Virus record (IMG/VR): IMGVR_UViG_2724679237_000005
Location: 1-64,000 of that record
Strand: one strand, 5' to 3'
Length of the DNA: 64,000 bases
Origin: a virus
Taxonomy: Duplodnaviria > Heunggongvirae > Uroviricota > Caudoviricetes
Shown piece after piece: positions 49,286 to 59,064 of this stretch. The translations under genes and the position numbers were made by a program. Every line of letters begins with the position of its first letter. The first letter of the stretch is position 1. The notes under the pieces were generated by a model. That model made no database searches and was not told the DNA's origin. It saw only the letters and a program-made list of their open reading frames with translations.

Positions 49286-50359
49286 TTACTCTTCTACTGA
49301 CTCGGTGGGGTTGTCTTTTGCTCTTCGGTCGTCGATTGCCTGCAAAGCCGCAATGATTTCAGCCAGTGGCTTCTCCCGATACATCTCGACGATCTGCGAT
49401 TTGGTGTATTTCTTGTCACCAATTTCAACTCGCCCGCTGGCGTTCTTTGGCAGGTATCCTTCTTCCAGCATGTACTCGACGAGCGATTCGATAACGTCGA
49501 GGCCACGAGTAGGATCGAAGTAGAATTTCCAGGTGCATTTGCCATACGGTGGTGCAACTTTGTTTTTGATGCATTCTGCGCCTACGTCCTGGCCGATCTT
49601 CTCTTTACCATCCTTCATCACCGATGCACCAAGACGGATACGTACAGAAGCGTAGAACTTCGGTGAATCCCCACCTGGCGACGTAGTAGGGTCGCCAAAC
49701 ATTACACCGATTTTTGTGCGAACCTGATTCAAGAAGATGATGCAGGCGTTGTATTTGCGTGCCCACAAAGCCAGAGTAGGGAAGTTCGCACTCGTCGCAC
49801 GAGCCAGTGCCGTATTGTCGTTCATGTTTAGCTGATCTTTGTCTTTGGCAGTGCCTTCAGCCATCTTTTCGAACTTCTCGGCTTTGGAGTTCGGAACCAT
49901 AGACGCAAGAGAGTCAGCCACGATACAGATTGGTGCTGATTCGGGGATAAGCTCTTCATCACGAACCAATTTAAGTATTGTGCCGATCAACTCTACAGAG
50001 TCTTCGAAGGTATCTGGCTGCTTGTATACCCACTGACCGTCATCCTCATCTGCGTTCAGGCCATTGGCGACAGCCAGGCCAACGTCAAAACTGTTTTCAT
50101 GATCGAGGAATACCGCCAGACCATCTTGTTTTTGAGCGGAGATCATCGCTGCTGTTGCAAGGAACGTTTTCCCTGCACTTGGAGGACCGAATACTTCGAC
50201 GATACGACCACATGGGAAGCCGCCATCGTAACGACCAGAAATAGCTTTGTTTAACGGTGGAAAGCCTGTATCAATCCAATGAGTTACTTTCTGAATTTCG
50301 TCGTTGCTACCGATTTTCTTTTTCAGAGCAAGTGCCAGTGCGGATTTTCCTTTTGCCAT
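49286..50359 (-). CDS. RecA-family recombinase
   Basis: 357 aa. PPLNKAISGRYDGGFPCGRIVEVFGPPSAGKT (Walker A), ICIVADS (Walker B) and a RecA-like layout. Confidence 0.8.
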   Translation of the reverse strand: MAKGKSALALALKKKIGSNDEIQKVTHWIDTGFPPLNKAISGRYDGGFPCGRIVEVFGPPSAGKTFLATAAMISAQKQDGLAVFLDHENSFDVGLAVANGLNADEDDGQWVYKQPDTFEDSVELIGTILKLVRDEELIPESAPICIVADSLASMVPNSKAEKFEKMAEGTAKDKDQLNMNDNTALARATSANFPTLALWARKYNACIIFLNQVRTKIGVMFGDPTTSPGGDSPKFYASVRIRLGASVMKDGKEKIGQDVGAECIKNKVAPPYGKCTWKFYFDPTRGLDVIESLVEYMLEEGYLPKNASGRVEIGDKKYTKSQIVEMYREKPLAEIIAALQAIDDRRAKDNPTESVEE

Positions 50360-53335: not shown

Positions 53336-54505
53336 TCACGTCTTAATAGTTTCTGCTACGTCGGCTAATATCGCTTCTAGTCGTTCTCCCTCTTCAGGTC
53401 TGAAGTAAAGAATGTTGGGGTTAAACCCGTAAAAGACAGTAACGTCAAGGTCTGGAAGATACTCCTTCCTGCCGACCAAATCGGATGGCTTGTTTTTGTT
53501 GTTAAACAATGCCGTTGCCCGGCTGCCACACGTCAGCACATAGGTCGGACGCACCAGATTGATCTCTTCACGTATAAAGTCGGTGAACTGGCCGATCTCG
53601 TCTTTGGTGTAGTCTTTTTCTTTGTCTTTAACCTTCTTGCAAACGCCTGTGACATAGAGATCGCCCATGCGTAAATCTCCAGCCGTCAATAGCTTGGCCT
53701 TAAAGTCGTCGTATCCGTTCTCCATAAAGTAACCGGTTCGAGCATCATTGCCGTTCGCATTGTCCAGAATGATCATGATTTTCGGCTTAATACCAATGCT
53801 GGGGCGGATTAGTTCATCACCTAAGCCCATTTCAGCCGCCATCCGCGTCATGAGTACGTTAATTTCAGCCGAACGTTTGGGGTTCATCTCAAACGAACGT
53901 GAGGCTTTAACTGCGTCTATGACAAGATTTCCCATCAATTCAGCCTGGTCGCGTAGGCGCTCTGGAGCAGTTGCTGGCAGACTACCTGGCTCGATGGATG
54001 CAAACGCCCCTACTTTTTGCAGCGATTCGCGCACTCGACTATTACAGGCACGTTTCTCGACAGCTTCTTCGAATTGCGCCAGTGACTCGAATTTGCCGCC
54101 AACTTTTTCTCGCGCTCTCATGATGGCTTGGCAGCCATTCTCAGAACACCCCTTCACAGCAGAGAATGGCGCATACAGCACCTGGCTGCCATCTTCAAGC
54201 GTGCGGATCTCGATTCGGTTAGATGACACGTTAACGTCTGGTGGCAATACGCGAATTCCATAGGTCAGCGCATCTTTAACCAGCCCTTGGTGTTTATCTT
54301 CGCCAAGAATAGTGAGAGCAGCAGCGAAAAACTCTGCGGGATAATGAGTTTTCAACCACATAGATTGATAACTGATTAAGGAGTAAGCAACAGAGTGTGA
54401 TTTGTTGAAGGCATACGCGCCGGATTTCTCAAACATATTCCAGATTTCTTCGGCTCGTTCGTGCGTCAGGCCATTGCTCTCTTCAACTACACTGGTAATT
54501 TTCAT
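53336..54505 (-). CDS. dnaE: DNA polymerase III alpha, C-terminal fragment, fused to a UDG-fold-like domain
   Basis: 389 aa. AYAFNKSHSVAYSLISYQSMWLKTHYPAEF is the DnaE finger/HhH region. The C-terminal ~150 aa (KIMIILDNANGND...LYVTGVCKK...TCGSRATALF...FNPN) follow a family-4 UDG-like pattern without the catalytic motifs. The start overlaps the HNH gene's stop. Confidence 0.8.
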   Translation of the reverse strand: MKITSVVEESNGLTHERAEEIWNMFEKSGAYAFNKSHSVAYSLISYQSMWLKTHYPAEFFAAALTILGEDKHQGLVKDALTYGIRVLPPDVNVSSNRIEIRTLEDGSQVLYAPFSAVKGCSENGCQAIMRAREKVGGKFESLAQFEEAVEKRACNSRVRESLQKVGAFASIEPGSLPATAPERLRDQAELMGNLVIDAVKASRSFEMNPKRSAEINVLMTRMAAEMGLGDELIRPSIGIKPKIMIILDNANGNDARTGYFMENGYDDFKAKLLTAGDLRMGDLYVTGVCKKVKDKEKDYTKDEIGQFTDFIREEINLVRPTYVLTCGSRATALFNNKNKPSDLVGRKEYLPDLDVTVFYGFNPNILYFRPEEGERLEAILADVAETIKT

Positions 54506-55236
54506 TCAGTCACCTCATCAATCTTCACGAACTCATACCCATTGGAGGCCAGCCAGTCCCGCTGGCGCTCCCAGCTCCATACCTTTTCACGCATTTCGCT
54601 ATGCAGGCGAATGTGGGCGTCTTCTGGAAGTGCCACCAGATTCCCAGGGGCGTTATCTACCGTATCGCGGTTAATATGGTGGACATGTTCATCGTCACGT
54701 AGCTCCCGACCGAGACGTTCTTTCGCTATCAACCGATGAACGTATTCGTATTGCGAAACGCCATTGTTACCAACCAGCTGCATCATGTAGCCGTTGGTTT
54801 TTACGATGATGCCATCTTTGTAGTTGTTCGCTTCTTCTCCGATCTTTCCGCGTTTGGCAGCCGCCAGCTTTTCCTTCGTCTCCGCGCGGATTGTTCTGCC
54901 GGTTAGCTTTTTCGAAACGGTGGCCACTCGCTCATCGATATCAGCACGCAGACCGGCATTCCACGAGGTTTTCCCATACATAGGGTTGCCAGTGCCAGTC
55001 CGGGCTTCGGAGAGTCGCTTCATACGTTCGTCATTATTTTTGTTTTTGCCACGATTCCAGGCTGGGGTAGCGGAGATCCGCGCGTTTCCGCGCCTGATCC
55101 CCCATTTGGCTAATAAGCGGTCAATATTTGCCTTGCTGCAACCAGCTTCGGCGGCAATGTCTTCTTTTCTCATCAGGTCAACCATGTAACGCTGACGTAA
55201 CCATTCTTCTGTGATTTTGTACTTCGTACTCGGCAT
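54502..55236 (-). mobile_element. free-standing HNH homing endonuclease gene inside dnaE
   Basis: 244 aa. NUMOD3-like repeats (WNRGKNKNNDERMKRLSEARTG, NPMYGKTSWNAGL, TKEKLAAAKRG) and an HNH core EYVHRLIAKE...HVHHINRDTVDNAPGNLVAL. It has its own A-type motif upstream. Confidence 0.8.
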
Positions 55237-55249
55237 TTCTAAGACTCAC

Positions 55250-55285
55250 TAAACAAATTGTTTTCTTATCTTATAAATTAATTCT
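55250..55285 (-). promoter_or_regulatory. A-type promoter/leader motif in front of the HNH gene
   Basis: taaacaaattgttttcttatcttataaattaattc. Confidence 0.5.
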
Positions 55286-57648
55286 CAAATATCGAAGCTC
55301 GTTATGTCGGCATTTATTGCCATTGCTTCGGCATAAGTGCGACGCTCACCATCAGCACAAAGTAGGCGTGCTGCTTTATGGATTTTTCTCGTAGAACCGT
55401 CATCCAGTGACACTGTCACCCAGCCTTCCTCCGCTCGCTTAATGAAGTCGCCGCCAATGGATTTCATTTTCTCCATATCTTTTTTCCCGATCGCTTTCCT
55501 GACCGAGTCTGCTTCCGCCATTGAGAACCCCGCCAAGATTCGCGTAGCAGCCATGATCTGTTCCTGATAAATCAGAACACCGTTTGTGTCGCGAGAGATG
55601 TCGTCCAGCATAGGGTGTAAGGAATGTGGAGCCATGAAGCCTTTGGCCACGGAGACATAGTCGTCCAACATGCCGGATTGAATCGGGCCTGGTCGGAAGA
55701 GTGCGGTCGTGGCGACAACGGTCTTGAAGCTCATTGGCTCGATGCCACCGCCCAGATCTTTAAGCAACTTACGCATGGGGCCGGACTCCAGCTGGAATAC
55801 GCCCTGCGTGTACCCTGCAGCGAACCCATCCAGAACCTTGCGATCGTCCAGTGGGATAGCGTCGAGATTGATATCTTCACCTGTGTTCTCTTTTATGTAG
55901 CGTTTTGCACTATCGAGCAAATCGAGAGTTGCCAGGCCAAGCACGTCCAGCTTAATTAGGCCCATAGCCTCGCAGTAACGCTTGTCAAATGCGATACAAC
56001 GCGCGTCACCACGTCGTTCAACCGGTGTACGTTCTGTCAGAGGAACACCTGCTACGATCATCCCTGCCGCATGTCTACCAAAGCCACGCATAAGGCTTTG
56101 TAACTTGCAGGCTGCATTGAATGCATCAGGATATTTTGTTGCGTATTTGTCGAGACTTGCCAGTTGTTCGCGCAGTTCTTCCAATGGAAGGCTATCATCC
56201 TCAGCGTTCTTCAGTTCTTTTGATACCGCCATATCTGCGGACTCCACACCATAAATACGAGCGGTGTCACGTAGTGCAGAGGCTGCGCCCAGGTAGGTGA
56301 AGTTCGGAATGCCTGCAACGTAATCTTCGCCGTAGCGTTCATTCAGATACTCGATCACCTCATGGCGACGTGCCTGGCTGAAGTCCAAATCCGCATCTGG
56401 CAAGTCGAGACGCTCAGGGTTGATGAAACGCTCAAACAGAAGACCGTGACGGATTGGGTCGACGTTGGTTATGCCTATGCACCACGCCACCAGAGAACCG
56501 GCAGAGGAACCACGACCAGGCCCAACGGGAATGCCAGTTTCACGACTATGATTCATCAGATCGCGCACCATCAGGAAGTAACCACAGAATCCCAGGCGAG
56601 TCAGCGTGTCCATTTCGTACTTTAGCCGCTCAACATAAACCCTGTTCTCAGAAGCAGGTGGTGTGTATCCAAACTCTTTTGTGGTAAGACGTTTACGCAG
56701 CCCTGCAACAGCCAGTTTCATCAGCGTTGCAGGTTCGTCGTCTGCCATCTTGGGCAGTGCTGGTGGCAATTCATGCCAGCGCCATGTGCAGGAATCGATA
56801 ATGGTATCCTGCGTTGTTGAGGCCATTGCAGCTGTTACAGGCACATCCATGCGAACGGAGAAGGCTTTAAGCGCCTCAAGGAGATGGCGGCGACCATTGA
56901 CGGCGTTATCTCGCTGGTGGGGGATACGCAGACGATGCGGCTGGTCGATTTTGATGTTGTTCGTAACCATGTGCGCAATGTCTTTAATGTCTGCATCGTC
57001 GATCGATTCGTAATAAGCGGGATAGAACGCCACTGGCTCTATTTTCAATGCGCTGGCGACTTTCATCGCCCGGACGTTAATCTGGTCGTAGAATGGGGTA
57101 GGGTGCGGATAAACCACACTATAGAAGTTGTCTTTTCCACCCGCTGTAATCAGTGTGCTTATGATTTTTGCAAAATCGTTGCGTTGGAACACGCTACCGA
57201 TGTCGGAAGTAAGCAGGATGATGTTGCCTTTGGCATATGTAGAAACCAACTGTTCGAGCGAGAGACGCGGTACAAAGTAGAACTGTTCTCGTGTGTTGGC
57301 CGCCGTCATTAGTTCGCAGATGTCGCGATATCCTTGCTCATTTTTAATTAGAGCGGTAAACGAGTAGTTACGTCCCCGCTCTAATGATTCCATACATCTC
57401 ATAGATTCTTTAGCAAGTTTAGCCCGGTGCTCGTATGTGGGATCATCAACAATGTTTAGTTTCACACCACAAATAACCGCCATGTCGTCACCAGCGGCAC
57501 GTTGTAGTGGAATAACGCTCGCAATATTCATGCTATCTGCTGAAATTACAGCGGTGTAGCCAGCTTCTCTGGCAATCTTCACCGCGTTTTCTGCTTTTAG
57601 AGCCGACTCCCCAAGTGAGAAGTCAGTTCGAACCATCAGTGCCTTCAT
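55285..57648 (-). CDS. dnaE: DNA polymerase III alpha, N-terminal fragment (PHP, palm, thumb, part of fingers)
   Basis: 787 aa. GSSAGSLVAWCIGITNVDP and the catalytic LPDADLDF are present. DnaE homology ends at FIKRAEEG and is followed by a 45-aa unrelated tail. Confidence 0.85.
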   Translation of the reverse strand: MKALMVRTDFSLGESALKAENAVKIAREAGYTAVISADSMNIASVIPLQRAAGDDMAVICGVKLNIVDDPTYEHRAKLAKESMRCMESLERGRNYSFTALIKNEQGYRDICELMTAANTREQFYFVPRLSLEQLVSTYAKGNIILLTSDIGSVFQRNDFAKIISTLITAGGKDNFYSVVYPHPTPFYDQINVRAMKVASALKIEPVAFYPAYYESIDDADIKDIAHMVTNNIKIDQPHRLRIPHQRDNAVNGRRHLLEALKAFSVRMDVPVTAAMASTTQDTIIDSCTWRWHELPPALPKMADDEPATLMKLAVAGLRKRLTTKEFGYTPPASENRVYVERLKYEMDTLTRLGFCGYFLMVRDLMNHSRETGIPVGPGRGSSAGSLVAWCIGITNVDPIRHGLLFERFINPERLDLPDADLDFSQARRHEVIEYLNERYGEDYVAGIPNFTYLGAASALRDTARIYGVESADMAVSKELKNAEDDSLPLEELREQLASLDKYATKYPDAFNAACKLQSLMRGFGRHAAGMIVAGVPLTERTPVERRGDARCIAFDKRYCEAMGLIKLDVLGLATLDLLDSAKRYIKENTGEDINLDAIPLDDRKVLDGFAAGYTQGVFQLESGPMRKLLKDLGGGIEPMSFKTVVATTALFRPGPIQSGMLDDYVSVAKGFMAPHSLHPMLDDISRDTNGVLIYQEQIMAATRILAGFSMAEADSVRKAIGKKDMEKMKSIGGDFIKRAEEGWVTVSLDDGSTRKIHKAARLLCADGERRTYAEAMAINADITSFDI

Positions 57649-57832
57649 GTGTTTTTACCTTTCTGGTTTTTTTGATTTTGTCATTGGGGAAGCCTACGAA
57701 CTTCCCATGCATCGAAATCGCAACTTCTTTTGCTGATTGGTGACAATCGGGCTTGTCTGGACACACCAGACAAGCCTTACCAGTTTCAGAAGCAGCGATA
57801 AGAGAGCCGAAACATCCTTTACGCACGATCAA
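57623..57832 (-). CDS. possible small Cys-rich protein
   Basis: 69-aa ORF with a TTG start overlapping the AAA+ gene's stop. Contains CLVCPDKPDC and overlaps the dnaE start by 26 nt. Confidence 0.25.
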   Translation of the reverse strand: MIVRKGCFGSLIAASETGKACLVCPDKPDCHQSAKEVAISMHGKFVGFPNDKIKKTRKVKTHEGTDGSN

Positions 57833-59064
57833 CCAAATATTTTTTGAACAACTTCACGAGCCGCTTGTGCAGAAGCTGAAGGGAGTTTGTTAATGAAAGA
57901 ACGCTCAATACCTGTCACAAAGTCGCCTCGCATCATTCCAATCTTGGCCGACAACAAAAGTTCACGAGGGCCAATTGGCTGACTGATAAGGTGTTCTTCG
58001 TATCCATCGCGAACGATACCGGCAAACTTAACCATCTTTTCTGCGTATTCATCCACGATACCGGCATTTATCAACATGTTGATCTCTGCCTCTTTGCTCA
58101 TGTATTTCACATTCGAAACGATGCCAAAACGCGAAAAGTTCGCGGCGTTCTGGATGTTTGTACCCTGGTACAAGCCGGTTTCATCACCAGATCCGTTCGT
58201 GTTGCCAGTGCCAATGAAAGCAAACCGTTCATGCGGAGTAATGCGACGCCATTCTGGAGTCGCCTCTTTGATGACCAACGCTTCACCTTCCAGCACTGGC
58301 TGATACACGCCAAGAATCTGTGGAAACGCAAAGTCGTATTCATCCGCGAGGTAAACCCAGCCATGCTTCATTGCGAGCGCAAGCAAGCCAGGTTCGAAAT
58401 ACGTAGAGCCATCACGCGCCAGAATTTGCCCCGTAACATGTGCCTCTTCCATTGATGCTGTATGTTGGGCACGGATCAACGGACGATTGAGCAAAGCACA
58501 TAGCTGTGTAGGCAATGACGATTTGCCTGTTCCTGCATGACCCCACAAATAGCCAGGTATGCCAAGTTCAAGCATCATGAAAATATCTTTGATCAGTTCG
58601 AAGTCGCCATATACGTAGCCTTTCTTCACTTCGGGAACGAACTCTGGAAACGGCGTATTGACGTTGACGCTAACCATGAGCGGCGTCCCACGTTTTGTTC
58701 CGAGTTCTTCCACCGTTACGTCTAGCAGTTCGTGAGCTGCGACCAGATCTGTCTTGTACTCAACTGTGCCTGTGTAGCCTGGGCTACTGGTCACGCCAGA
58801 TGATTTGGCCATTTCGCTTTTTTGCTCGGCACGTTTAGCTTGAATTGCATCAAGTGCCTTTTTCGATAGCGTTGGCTCATCTGGAAACTGTGTTGTGTAC
58901 ATTTTCAGTACGGTGTCAGGATCGGCATCTTTTACTGACTCAGGAATGCCCTCGCAATTACCATTGGCTACATGGGACTTAAAATAGTGAAATGATTTTC
59001 CGCACCACTTGCAAACAAGGTAATCAGAAGGATTTTTTTCATTTTGCAGTGCAGTAGTCGTCAT
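57829..59064 (-). CDS. AAA+ ATPase (CobS/MoxR-like)
   Basis: 411 aa. N-terminal Cys cluster CKWCGKSF, Walker A GHAGTGKSS and Walker B VYLADEYD. Confidence 0.7.
   Translation of the reverse strand: MTTTALQNEKNPSDYLVCKWCGKSFHYFKSHVANGNCEGIPESVKDADPDTVLKMYTTQFPDEPTLSKKALDAIQAKRAEQKSEMAKSSGVTSSPGYTGTVEYKTDLVAAHELLDVTVEELGTKRGTPLMVSVNVNTPFPEFVPEVKKGYVYGDFELIKDIFMMLELGIPGYLWGHAGTGKSSLPTQLCALLNRPLIRAQHTASMEEAHVTGQILARDGSTYFEPGLLALAMKHGWVYLADEYDFAFPQILGVYQPVLEGEALVIKEATPEWRRITPHERFAFIGTGNTNGSGDETGLYQGTNIQNAANFSRFGIVSNVKYMSKEAEINMLINAGIVDEYAEKMVKFAGIVRDGYEEHLISQPIGPRELLLSAKIGMMRGDFVTGIERSFINKLPSASAQAAREVVQKIFG

Follow-up and report, generated by a model that had tools for sequence, protein, structure and literature searches.

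The fractured genes described by Dassa et al. (2009, NAR 37:2560; PMC2677866) fall into eight host-gene types, DnaE among them, and carry complete split inteins. At these loci the N part is 88–105 aa long with six HINT motifs and five catalytic residues, trans-splicing is predicted, and the coding sequence of a homing-endonuclease gene (HEG) overlaps that of the downstream half at 15 fractured loci (PMC2677866). In Aeromonas phage Aeh1, nrdA is interrupted by mobE (Friedrich et al. 2007; Crona et al. 2011, NAR 39:1381; PMC3045599); neither RNA nor protein splicing is involved, and the active, non-covalent enzyme requires short tails that flank the break, one C-terminal and one N-terminal (PMC3045599). 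Here we describe a split dnaE, the gene for the alpha subunit of DNA polymerase III (Pol III alpha), in a 64,000-nt stretch of viral DNA (Caudoviricetes; IMG/VR record IMGVR_UViG_2724679237_000005, positions 1 to 64,000; hereafter the window). The window is an SSU5/pHCM2-type phage-plasmid, and the region is 98–99% identical to E. coli plasmids of that type. Its dnaE lies in two open reading frames (ORFs) with a free-standing putative HEG, HEG1, between them, and the short peptides flanking the break form a family-wide module that is quite probably of HINT/intein ancestry.

The locus shares with the fractured genes a DNA-replication enzyme in two adjacent ORFs, a free-standing HEG between them and peptides at the new termini that appear HINT-derived, together with a hairpin or palindrome before the HEG, a 3' overlap of the HEG, HEG-less derivatives that keep the upstream hairpin, and a phage context. 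It differs in that ~45 + 11 aa are present here, lacking block A, the catalytic residues and blocks F/G, whereas a complete split intein defines those loci; in the HEG types, which are HNH (NUMOD3 or NUMOD4) here and GIY-YIG or Vsr-like there; in the integration point, which is another one at their three DnaE loci; and in that the remnant here is also fused in frame in uninterrupted alleles. Aeh1 nrdA, likewise an essential DNA-metabolism gene split by a free-standing HNH-family gene, offers the nearest functional parallel to the mechanism proposed below. Its tails, however, are reported as unique and as products of the mobE insertion, whereas here the tails are an older HINT-like module, present throughout the family and unbroken in intact alleles, the split is common to hundreds of elements with several occupants, and the system is known from its genes alone. 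The cyanobacterial Ssp and Npu DnaE (Wu et al. 1998; PDB 2keq, 4kl5 and 1zd7) are also made from two genes, of about 775–790 + 390–420 aa, divided in the same fingers region; the module is most similar in profile and fold to their intein family, and its break falls at the boundary between the N- and C-terminal parts of those inteins (IntN|IntC). Those inteins, in contrast, are complete and active, ligate the halves, are inserted directly before FNKSHS, and belong to two genes at separate loci with no HEG. With enzymes of the I-HmuI, I-TevIII and MobE type HEG1 shares HNH_3 + NUMOD3 domains, presence or absence at one target gene and co-converted flanks, but its order, helix-turn-helix (HTH)–NUMOD3–HNH with the nuclease C-terminal, is the reverse of that in I-HmuI, and its closest phage homologs are <40% identical. 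A literature search found no description of this split dnaE, nor of a domesticated intein remnant of such a kind.

Organization of the split dnaE locus

The locus comprises three ORFs on the minus strand with the following features.

55285–57648, minus strand: dnaE N-terminal fragment ORF, 787 aa, with PHP, palm/NTPase and finger domains and then a 45-aa tail (ORF list, Pfam, NCBIfam PRK05673)
55288–55422, minus strand: tail, N-fragment residues 743–787 (WVTVSLDDGSTRKIHKAARLLCADGERRTYAEAMAINADITSFDI), 45 codons, the N-side of the HINT-like mini-domain
55237–55284, minus strand: spacer of 48 nt from the N-fragment stop to the HEG1 start
55251–55265, minus strand: palindrome GAAAACAATTTGTTT, a copy of a backbone motif, 21 nt upstream of the HEG1 ATG
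54502–55236, minus strand: HEG1, free-standing putative homing-endonuclease gene, 244 aa (ORF list, Pfam)
54502–54516, minus strand: putative translational coupling region, a Shine–Dalgarno sequence plus a stop/start overlap (sequence)
53336–54505, minus strand: dnaE C-terminal fragment ORF, 389 aa, with the remaining fingers (FNKSHS onward), an HHH_6 beta-binding region and a C-terminal domain like family 4 of uracil-DNA glycosylases (UDG) (ORF list, Pfam, PRK05673)
54473–54505, minus strand: head, C-fragment residues 1–11 (MKITSVVEESN), the C-side strand of the HINT-like mini-domain
54415–56450: tract around the HEG1 cassette that appears imported (co-converted), from the identity profile against the HEG-less PhiR41_1 allele

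Pfam assigned PHP (3e-13), DNA_pol3_alpha (4e-74) and DNA_pol3_finger (2e-45, model positions 1–164 of 166) to the N fragment, and HHH_6 (5e-17) plus a weak UDG match to the C fragment. PRK05673 positions 9–726 are covered by N-fragment residues 4–741 and positions 725–886 by C-fragment residues 9–173; because these matches abut, canonical DnaE continues across the break without a gap, and the locus holds ~56 extra residues, namely the 45-codon tail and ~11 head codons. HEG1 has an HTH-like region at its N-terminus, NUMOD3 (2.7e-6; residues 73–90, 54967–55020) and a C-terminal HNH_3 (7.9e-8; residues 165–205, 54622–54744), and it is a full-length match to phrog_21964 'HNH endonuclease' (5.7e-158). 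An earlier sequence-only reading of the window had described two dnaE ORFs around a free-standing NUMOD3+HNH gene, in agreement with the ORF list and Pfam, and had seen DnaE homology as contiguous between ~55423 and ~54478, coordinates that PRK05673 places correctly to within a codon.

At the junction, the TGA stop of the N fragment is followed by the 48-nt spacer and by the HEG1 ATG at 55236, whose ribosome-binding site (RBS) is weak. The HEG1 stop overlaps the C-fragment start (ATGA, 54505–54502), and a GAGGTG Shine–Dalgarno sequence (54516–54511) lies within the HEG1 3' end, 5 nt ahead of the C-fragment ATG. This spacer is conserved among HEG1 alleles, whether from E. coli, Enterobacter or Cronobacter, and its homolog in HEG-less split alleles is the 5' portion of their spacer. 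The same reading had noticed the ATGA overlap, plain in the sequence, and a copy of a backbone motif in the spacer; the motif, GAAAACAAnTTGTTT, has 25 strand-matches at about 14 sites of the window against 1.67 expected, and 0/100 shuffles reach 25.

Tail and head form a conserved mini-domain resembling the core of an intein

Outside the insert the region is 85–95% identical to phages SSU5, PhiR41_1, Cyrano and CMS-2020a, and these four phages, like hundreds of plasmids, have an uninterrupted dnaE of 1172 or 1168 aa. The intact DnaE proteins hold a segment homologous to the window tail + head, e.g. GWIDVELEDGTTQRIHRAEHFKCEDGTLKTVEEALEHGAKLPINAVRVTASHPGLSE, and since intact alleles already contain it, tail and head are not debris of endonuclease insertion. 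AlphaFold2 modeled the segment in an uninterrupted allele as a mini-domain between two finger helices, with a predicted local distance difference test (pLDDT) score of 76–91, and the isolated region of a long-hairpin allele, at pLDDT >90, as four short strands, a short helix and a final beta-hairpin. The gene break is the turn of this final hairpin, and the head is strand E68–73 of the mini-domain model; its pattern MK[IV]xx[VI][IV]SE is conserved in all split alleles. Compared across alleles, tail and head are a conserved family-wide mini-domain, contiguous in the uninterrupted ones.

The best Foldseek matches were mini-inteins (NpuDnaE, halophilic DnaE, MchDnaB-1, gp41-1, Msm DnaB and Ssp DnaE; probability up to 0.98). 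In profile–profile alignment by hhalign against the Npu DnaE intein, whose sequence was checked against PDB 2keq and 4kl5, the all-allele module profile scored 31.6 (P 1.1e-5), the split tail+head profile 34.7 (P 3.3e-6; column shuffles 10.1 ± 2.0, maximum 18.0, 0/300), and 21 divergent tails 40.0 (P 1.2e-7, probability 94%; column shuffles 9.8 ± 2.2, maximum 18.6, 0/300), the score going up with the addition of more divergent tails. Against a multiple sequence alignment (MSA) of eight inteins, the all-allele profile scored 24.1 (column shuffles 10.0 ± 2.0, maximum 17.8, 0/400), and in total 0/1000 column shuffles reached the real score. A null of 71 real proteins from the window gave 10.7 ± 2.7 with a maximum of 18.9, none reaching the module score, and an Hfq control gave 6.4.

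The aligned Npu residues were 56–98, extending to 110 with the intein MSA. The tail corresponds to Npu residues about 56–102, the second half of IntN minus its catalytic T-x-x-H, and the head to the first IntC strand (Npu M103-IKIATRK). The intein parts covered are thus the strand before block B, block B, the next helix and strand, and the first IntC strand, and the secondary-structure elements of the module and of the intein segment match one for one. The gene break coincides with the IntN|IntC boundary ('...ADITS-FD-I|MKITSVVEE' against Npu '...ELDLMR-VDNLPN|MIKIATR'). Absent from the module are block A with Cys1, the module starting with Trp, and blocks F/G with His-Asn; the block-B T-x-x-H positions align to H..E or H..A, the +1 residue is Gly, and the splicing residues are absent in every allele examined. 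The sequence-only reading was right that a Cys/Ser nucleophile and an HN junction are missing. It had also taken the residues at the break for an intein relic, for which profile and fold support the ancestry, but not the assignment to the first and last HINT strands: the match is to the central Npu ~56–110. Nor are they, as its decayed intein would imply, debris specific to this allele: the module occurs throughout the family, is under purifying selection and is unbroken in intact alleles. Our own initial view, that there was no intein relic (the tail occurs in intact SSU5 and PhiR41_1, and there was no HMM match), was reversed by the fold and profile–profile results.

Several observations weigh against an intein origin. 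HMMER searches of Pfam and PDB at E<=10 found no HINT/intein family for the module, and a module-profile HMMER search of 1.84 billion representatives found no intein and no relative with a complete intein at this site, its matches being DnaE fragments and generic beta-hairpin repeat proteins alone. Foldseek E-values were 0.04–0.5, none <=0.001, with TM-scores of about 0.35–0.40, and the list of matches also includes Hfq/Sm and Tudor folds. The profile similarity is specific to DnaE-type inteins: Ssp DnaE scored 31–32, gp41-1 and Ssp DnaB were marginal and aligned at their block-B regions, and DnaB, RecA, GyrA, NrdJ and IMPDH were at or near the null. Of the eight sequences in the intein MSA, Npu is the only verified one, and the key statistics are those for Npu alone. 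The motif of the first hairpin, WxVxLxDG, is generic and matches repeat proteins, and the site of the cyanobacterial DnaE intein is a different insertion point, ~24 residues downstream of the module. The link to HINT is at the profile–profile and fold level alone.

On these grounds (the HMMER result, Foldseek E-values of 0.04–0.5 with TMq <0.4 and Hfq/Sm and Tudor folds in the list, the null scores of most non-DnaE inteins, the generic motif, the different insertion point and the absence of all catalytic residues), the 56-aa module could be a lineage-specific beta-hairpin insert without intein ancestry, its likeness arising by convergence and the halves being joined by the finger-domain interface. 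We consider this unlikely, though it is the alternative that we take most seriously. Against it stand hhalign P values of 1e-5 to 1e-7 with a verified intein, which 0/1000 shuffles and 0/71 real proteins equaled, the low Hfq score, a score that grows with the diversity of the profile, a matching order of elements, a break on the canonical split-intein point, and the fractured-gene architecture. HINT/intein ancestry of the module is, on profiles and models, quite probable. Large repeat proteins (P0121, P0136, P0140, P0143–P0146 and others) match the first hairpin in 5–15 stretches each, which shows that the module is in part a generic beta-hairpin motif.

One break with several gap occupants

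Within a few residues, the 787|389 break recurs among relatives, and what lies in the gap takes several forms.

HEG1: 25 plasmids of E. coli, Enterobacter and Cronobacter, among about 800 SSU5-type plasmids; always one copy, always this site
HEG1 homolog, 38% identical: one Aeromonas plasmid
HEG2 (NUMOD4, N-terminal HNH, C-terminal HTH): about 243 Klebsiella, Enterobacter and Citrobacter plasmids
HEG2 relative, 43% identical: about 94 Acinetobacter plasmids
Three non-endonuclease ORFs: one divergent lineage (L013, 5389–6762)
Spacer alone, 71, 72 or 84 nt: several lineages, with backbone identity of 79%, 68% and 62%

Alignment between HEG1 and HEG2 is limited to the HNH core. Because the same break occurs with HEG2, with other ORFs or with no insert, HEG1 is not the cause of the split; across the alleles compared, it is a secondary, mobile occupant of the gap, one of several tenants. 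The sequence-only reading had the endonuclease splitting the gene. The identical break with the unrelated HEG2, with other ORFs and with no insert comes near to an ancestral two-ORF arrangement free of any HEG association, which that reading had itself named as speaking against it. The HEG1 allele retains the 5' part of the empty spacer (palindrome + TAGTGAG) and the HEG2 allele its 3' part (TAATGAC + RBS + ATG), and since the two keep complementary halves, two independent entries into a pre-existing intercistronic gap are the simplest explanation. In a protein search, N fragments of 784–792 aa and intact forms appeared intermingled over the identity range of 92% to 54%, and the 50%-identity cluster representatives that carry the module were mostly N fragments of 756–790 aa ending at the module. 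Split dnaE is present in >350 plasmids and in the majority of deep cluster representatives.

Taken literally, the sequence-only reading holds that an intein decayed, that its endonuclease became HEG1 and that this event split a contiguous dnaE. HEG1 does lie exactly at the break with HINT-like residues on both sides, and its association with the gap is old, since a 38%-identical homolog occupies the same gap in Aeromonas. We nevertheless find this scenario improbable. The same break is found around HEG2 in ~10x more plasmids, around non-HEG ORFs, and, in several deep lineages, around an empty spacer; the complementary spacer halves imply independent entry; the HEG1 cassette is younger than its backbones (below); and HEG1 brings its own 5' motif, stop and start codons, like invading free-standing HEGs. 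The presence of at least two architecturally unrelated free-standing HEGs in the slot likewise fits invasion and not the release of an intein endonuclease.

The three gap ORFs of the divergent lineage are 172, 95 and 184 aa long, and the first matches phrog_3806 (unknown function); as they are non-endonuclease, the dnaE gap can carry non-HEG cargo. In an Acinetobacter baumannii plasmid (NZ_CP043470; L015, 4498–5073), the gap ORF is a 191-aa NUMOD4 protein 43% identical to HEG2, which may be a decaying endonuclease, its HNH region being degenerate-looking. A split allele is also found in Xenorhabdus (P0106).

Either the split or the intact form may have come first; intact alleles are the numerical majority in E. 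coli, Salmonella and Yersinia. There are three kinds of intact allele, and their length differs exactly at the break point, which points to a secondary origin of some intact genes, by re-fusion of split ones. 'Type B' intact alleles of 1168 aa (E. coli pSCMY1, 1537–5043 of L007; P0001 and P0090) have a split-type sequence flavor and a shortened last strand (…SDGIDYVEIVSEQE). In E. coli pAMPD1 (L008, NZ_CP058356), a type-B-like dnaE is frameshifted in the module, with the ORF ending at 779 aa and no proper C fragment; this is apparently a genuine pseudogene allele.

HEG1 mobility and co-conversion of flanking sequence

Relative to the HEG-less PhiR41_1 allele, identity is 98–100% beyond 56450 and drops stepwise to ~60% adjoining the insert; on the C side, it is back abruptly at 98–100% at the FNKSHS codons, ~54415. 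The window DnaE backbone protein is 97–98% identical to intact alleles while its tail is just 37–47% identical, and the tail and backbone phylogenies therefore disagree; the tail is closest to those of split alleles on backbones 59–74% identical. Between E. coli and Enterobacter HEG1 alleles, the cassette with ~500 bp upstream and ~150 bp downstream is 92–98% identical, against 74–89% for other dnaE sequence. Synonymous divergence (dS) is 0.12–0.38 for HEG1 versus 0.6–1.4 for the backbone. The HEG1 ORF is intact in all alleles, with a ratio of nonsynonymous to synonymous divergence (dN/dS) of 0.17–0.33. By these distances the HEG1 cassette and its flanks are younger than their backbones and disagree with them in phylogeny, and the pattern, as read from the alleles, is the signature of homing with co-conversion. 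Among 50,697 phage records no close HEG1 homolog was found, the best being at <40% identity.

Both halves are maintained and most likely made as two polypeptides

Both halves are intact in all seven split alleles compared, with dN/dS of 0.02–0.06. The tail shows 13 synonymous and 3 nonsynonymous changes between the window and Cronobacter, and very divergent lineages keep full-length N fragments ending at the module. Because homing imports the cassette into already-diverged backbones, we discounted whole-gene dN/dS as proof of post-split function and gave weight instead to the codons of tail and head and to the intactness of the ORFs in deep lineages. Codon changes indicate purifying selection on both halves and on the tail.

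These data bear on the possibility that the interrupted dnaE is a non-functional pseudogene, with the host polymerase used instead and the ORFs intact only through the recency of the interruption. The annotation pipeline PGAP omits or flags the N fragment, the pAMPD1 allele is frameshifted, and three relatives (P0074, P0091 and P0117) carry deletion fusions, all of which would suit such a state. Yet every split allele examined keeps both ORFs intact, even at 54% identity and beyond; dN/dS is 0.02–0.06, the changes in the tail are synonymous by 13 to 3, and the split form is found in >350 plasmids and most deep representatives, so that we regard a pseudogene as very improbable.

A contiguous polymerase could in principle be restored by RNA splicing, through a group I intron as with SPO1 I-HmuI, or by protein trans-splicing. 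Many HNH/NUMOD endonucleases are encoded within introns, and the flanking peptides here are HINT-like. An Rfam scan of 54300–55700, however, found no intron family even at E<=10; with just 48 nt of non-coding sequence and ORFs that abut or overlap, a group I or II intron was rejected. The frame of intact alleles is colinear with tail and head, and there is therefore nothing to remove but the HEG and the spacer. Protein splicing is excluded because catalytic residues are missing: no Cys/Ser at the module start, no terminal His-Asn, Gly at +1 and the block-B T-x-x-H lost. Restoration by either route is accordingly extremely improbable. With no intron in the Rfam scan and apparently no splicing-competent intein, two polypeptides are the most likely outcome, as the sequence-only reading had also proposed.

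We therefore weighed a composite reading in which Pol III alpha is encoded by a fractured gene, a split intein has been reduced to a non-catalytic core of ~56 aa, and the halves are joined non-covalently; we think this somewhat probable, its weakest links being the HINT ancestry and the clasp function. In the proposed mechanism, the N fragment, HEG1 and the C fragment would probably be co-transcribed, and an additional backbone-type promoter or leader before HEG1 would drive HEG1. The C fragment would be translated from the strong Shine–Dalgarno sequence inside HEG1 with coupling at the ATGA, and the 787-aa and 389-aa polypeptides, made separately, would assemble non-covalently into an active polymerase. 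The strands of the dead intein would serve as a clasp, the head strand completing the beta-sheet of the tail, with a contribution from the ordinary finger-domain interface. HEG1 would be a later selfish occupant that cuts HEG-less alleles and is copied in with co-converted flanks. From purifying selection and the folded mini-domain models we infer the assembly of the two halves into an active enzyme, and we likewise infer the clasp function of tail + head. The retained segment, the second half of IntN and the start of IntC, is the part of the Npu DnaE intein reported to act in the initial 'capture' between halves, and for this reason a clasp role would fit.

Two points count against this composite reading beyond those on ancestry and on the order of split and intact alleles: whole-gene dN/dS partly records history before the cassette was imported, and the proteins, their association and the polymerase activity are predicted here from the genes. 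More tentatively, and short of calling it likely, we suggest that a dead split-intein remnant has been domesticated as the clasp of a two-piece polymerase and that the gap is a reusable landing pad for unrelated HEGs. There may then be HEG gain, replacement, loss and occasional re-fusion at the gap, while the module is retained across a deep clade of DnaE from phage-plasmids and phages.

The backbone palindrome and neighboring features

Every GAAAACAAnTTGTTT site with a called ORF lies 18–38 nt upstream of the start of a minus-strand ORF, and a GATAAT-like box usually precedes the motif. The motif is probably a phage-plasmid promoter or leader, or an operator for some regulator. Its site centers in the window are as follows.

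4868, 7489, 10104, 10868, 11770, 12255, 13450, 14337, 14388, 25474, 26187: GAAAACAAnTTGTTT site centers
26916, 37137, 55257, 61294: GAAAACAAnTTGTTT site centers, continued

Variants of the motif occur in dnaE gaps elsewhere, with two copies in the empty spacer of a Klebsiella element (L009) and one upstream of the gap ORF in the A. baumannii plasmid described above. A sigma-70 promoter scan of the junction found no promoter-like site, and a terminator scan of the junction found no sense-strand terminator but two antisense terminator-like hairpins at chance level; both scans are uninformative.

C-fragment residues 269–385 (53351–53701, minus strand) resemble family 4 uracil-DNA glycosylases (TIGR00758 E=5e-8, below cutoff; Pfam UDG 0.0034), and in this DnaE family such an end takes the place of the OB-fold and tau-binding C-terminus that canonical Pol III alpha has. 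It is because of this domain that annotation pipelines call the C half 'uracil-DNA glycosylase'; PGAP does so on many E. coli records, in which the N fragment is unannotated or flagged. Upstream of dnaE (57829–59064, minus strand) lies a CobS-like AAA_5/MoxR ATPase gene, to which relatives add a CobT-like protein, and the CobS/CobT-like pairing by dnaE is kept in all phage-plasmid lineages examined, from E. coli to Acinetobacter. A RecA-like gene (49286–50359, minus strand) is intein-less here (GPPSAGKT|FLATAAM), whereas in some relatives its P-loop position carries an intein ending ...SNGIISHN|T. The deletion fusions in P0074, P0091 and P0117 join DnaE in frame to the RecA-like protein; in P0074 the junction lies inside the DnaE HINT-like module, which is joined to the last residues of the intein of the RecA-like gene.

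Implications

If the composite reading is true, one consequence would be a correction of annotation, the C half now being named 'uracil-DNA glycosylase' or 'hypothetical' and the N half a partial or pseudogene dnaE. The locus would also provide a naturally validated split site and a small heterodimerization module for Pol III alpha, useful for split-protein engineering, with the module coming from the Npu/Ssp DnaE intein family that is the workhorse of the split-protein field. Across hundreds of plasmids of clinical isolates, one locus would offer a natural series of intact, empty split, HEG1- or HEG2-occupied, cargo-bearing and re-fused alleles; its hosts include E. coli, Klebsiella, Enterobacter, Cronobacter, Aeromonas and Acinetobacter, and it suits a quantitative study of the HEG life cycle and of co-conversion. 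On the more tentative reading of a domesticated remnant, the split dnaE would mark an endpoint in the life cycle of inteins and HEGs that was predicted but for which we found no description: after the loss of splicing, the association half of the HINT fold would have been kept as a clasp and the chemistry discarded. This would extend the 'gene-breaking' model of Dassa et al. by one step and link it to the 'tails' solution of Aeh1.

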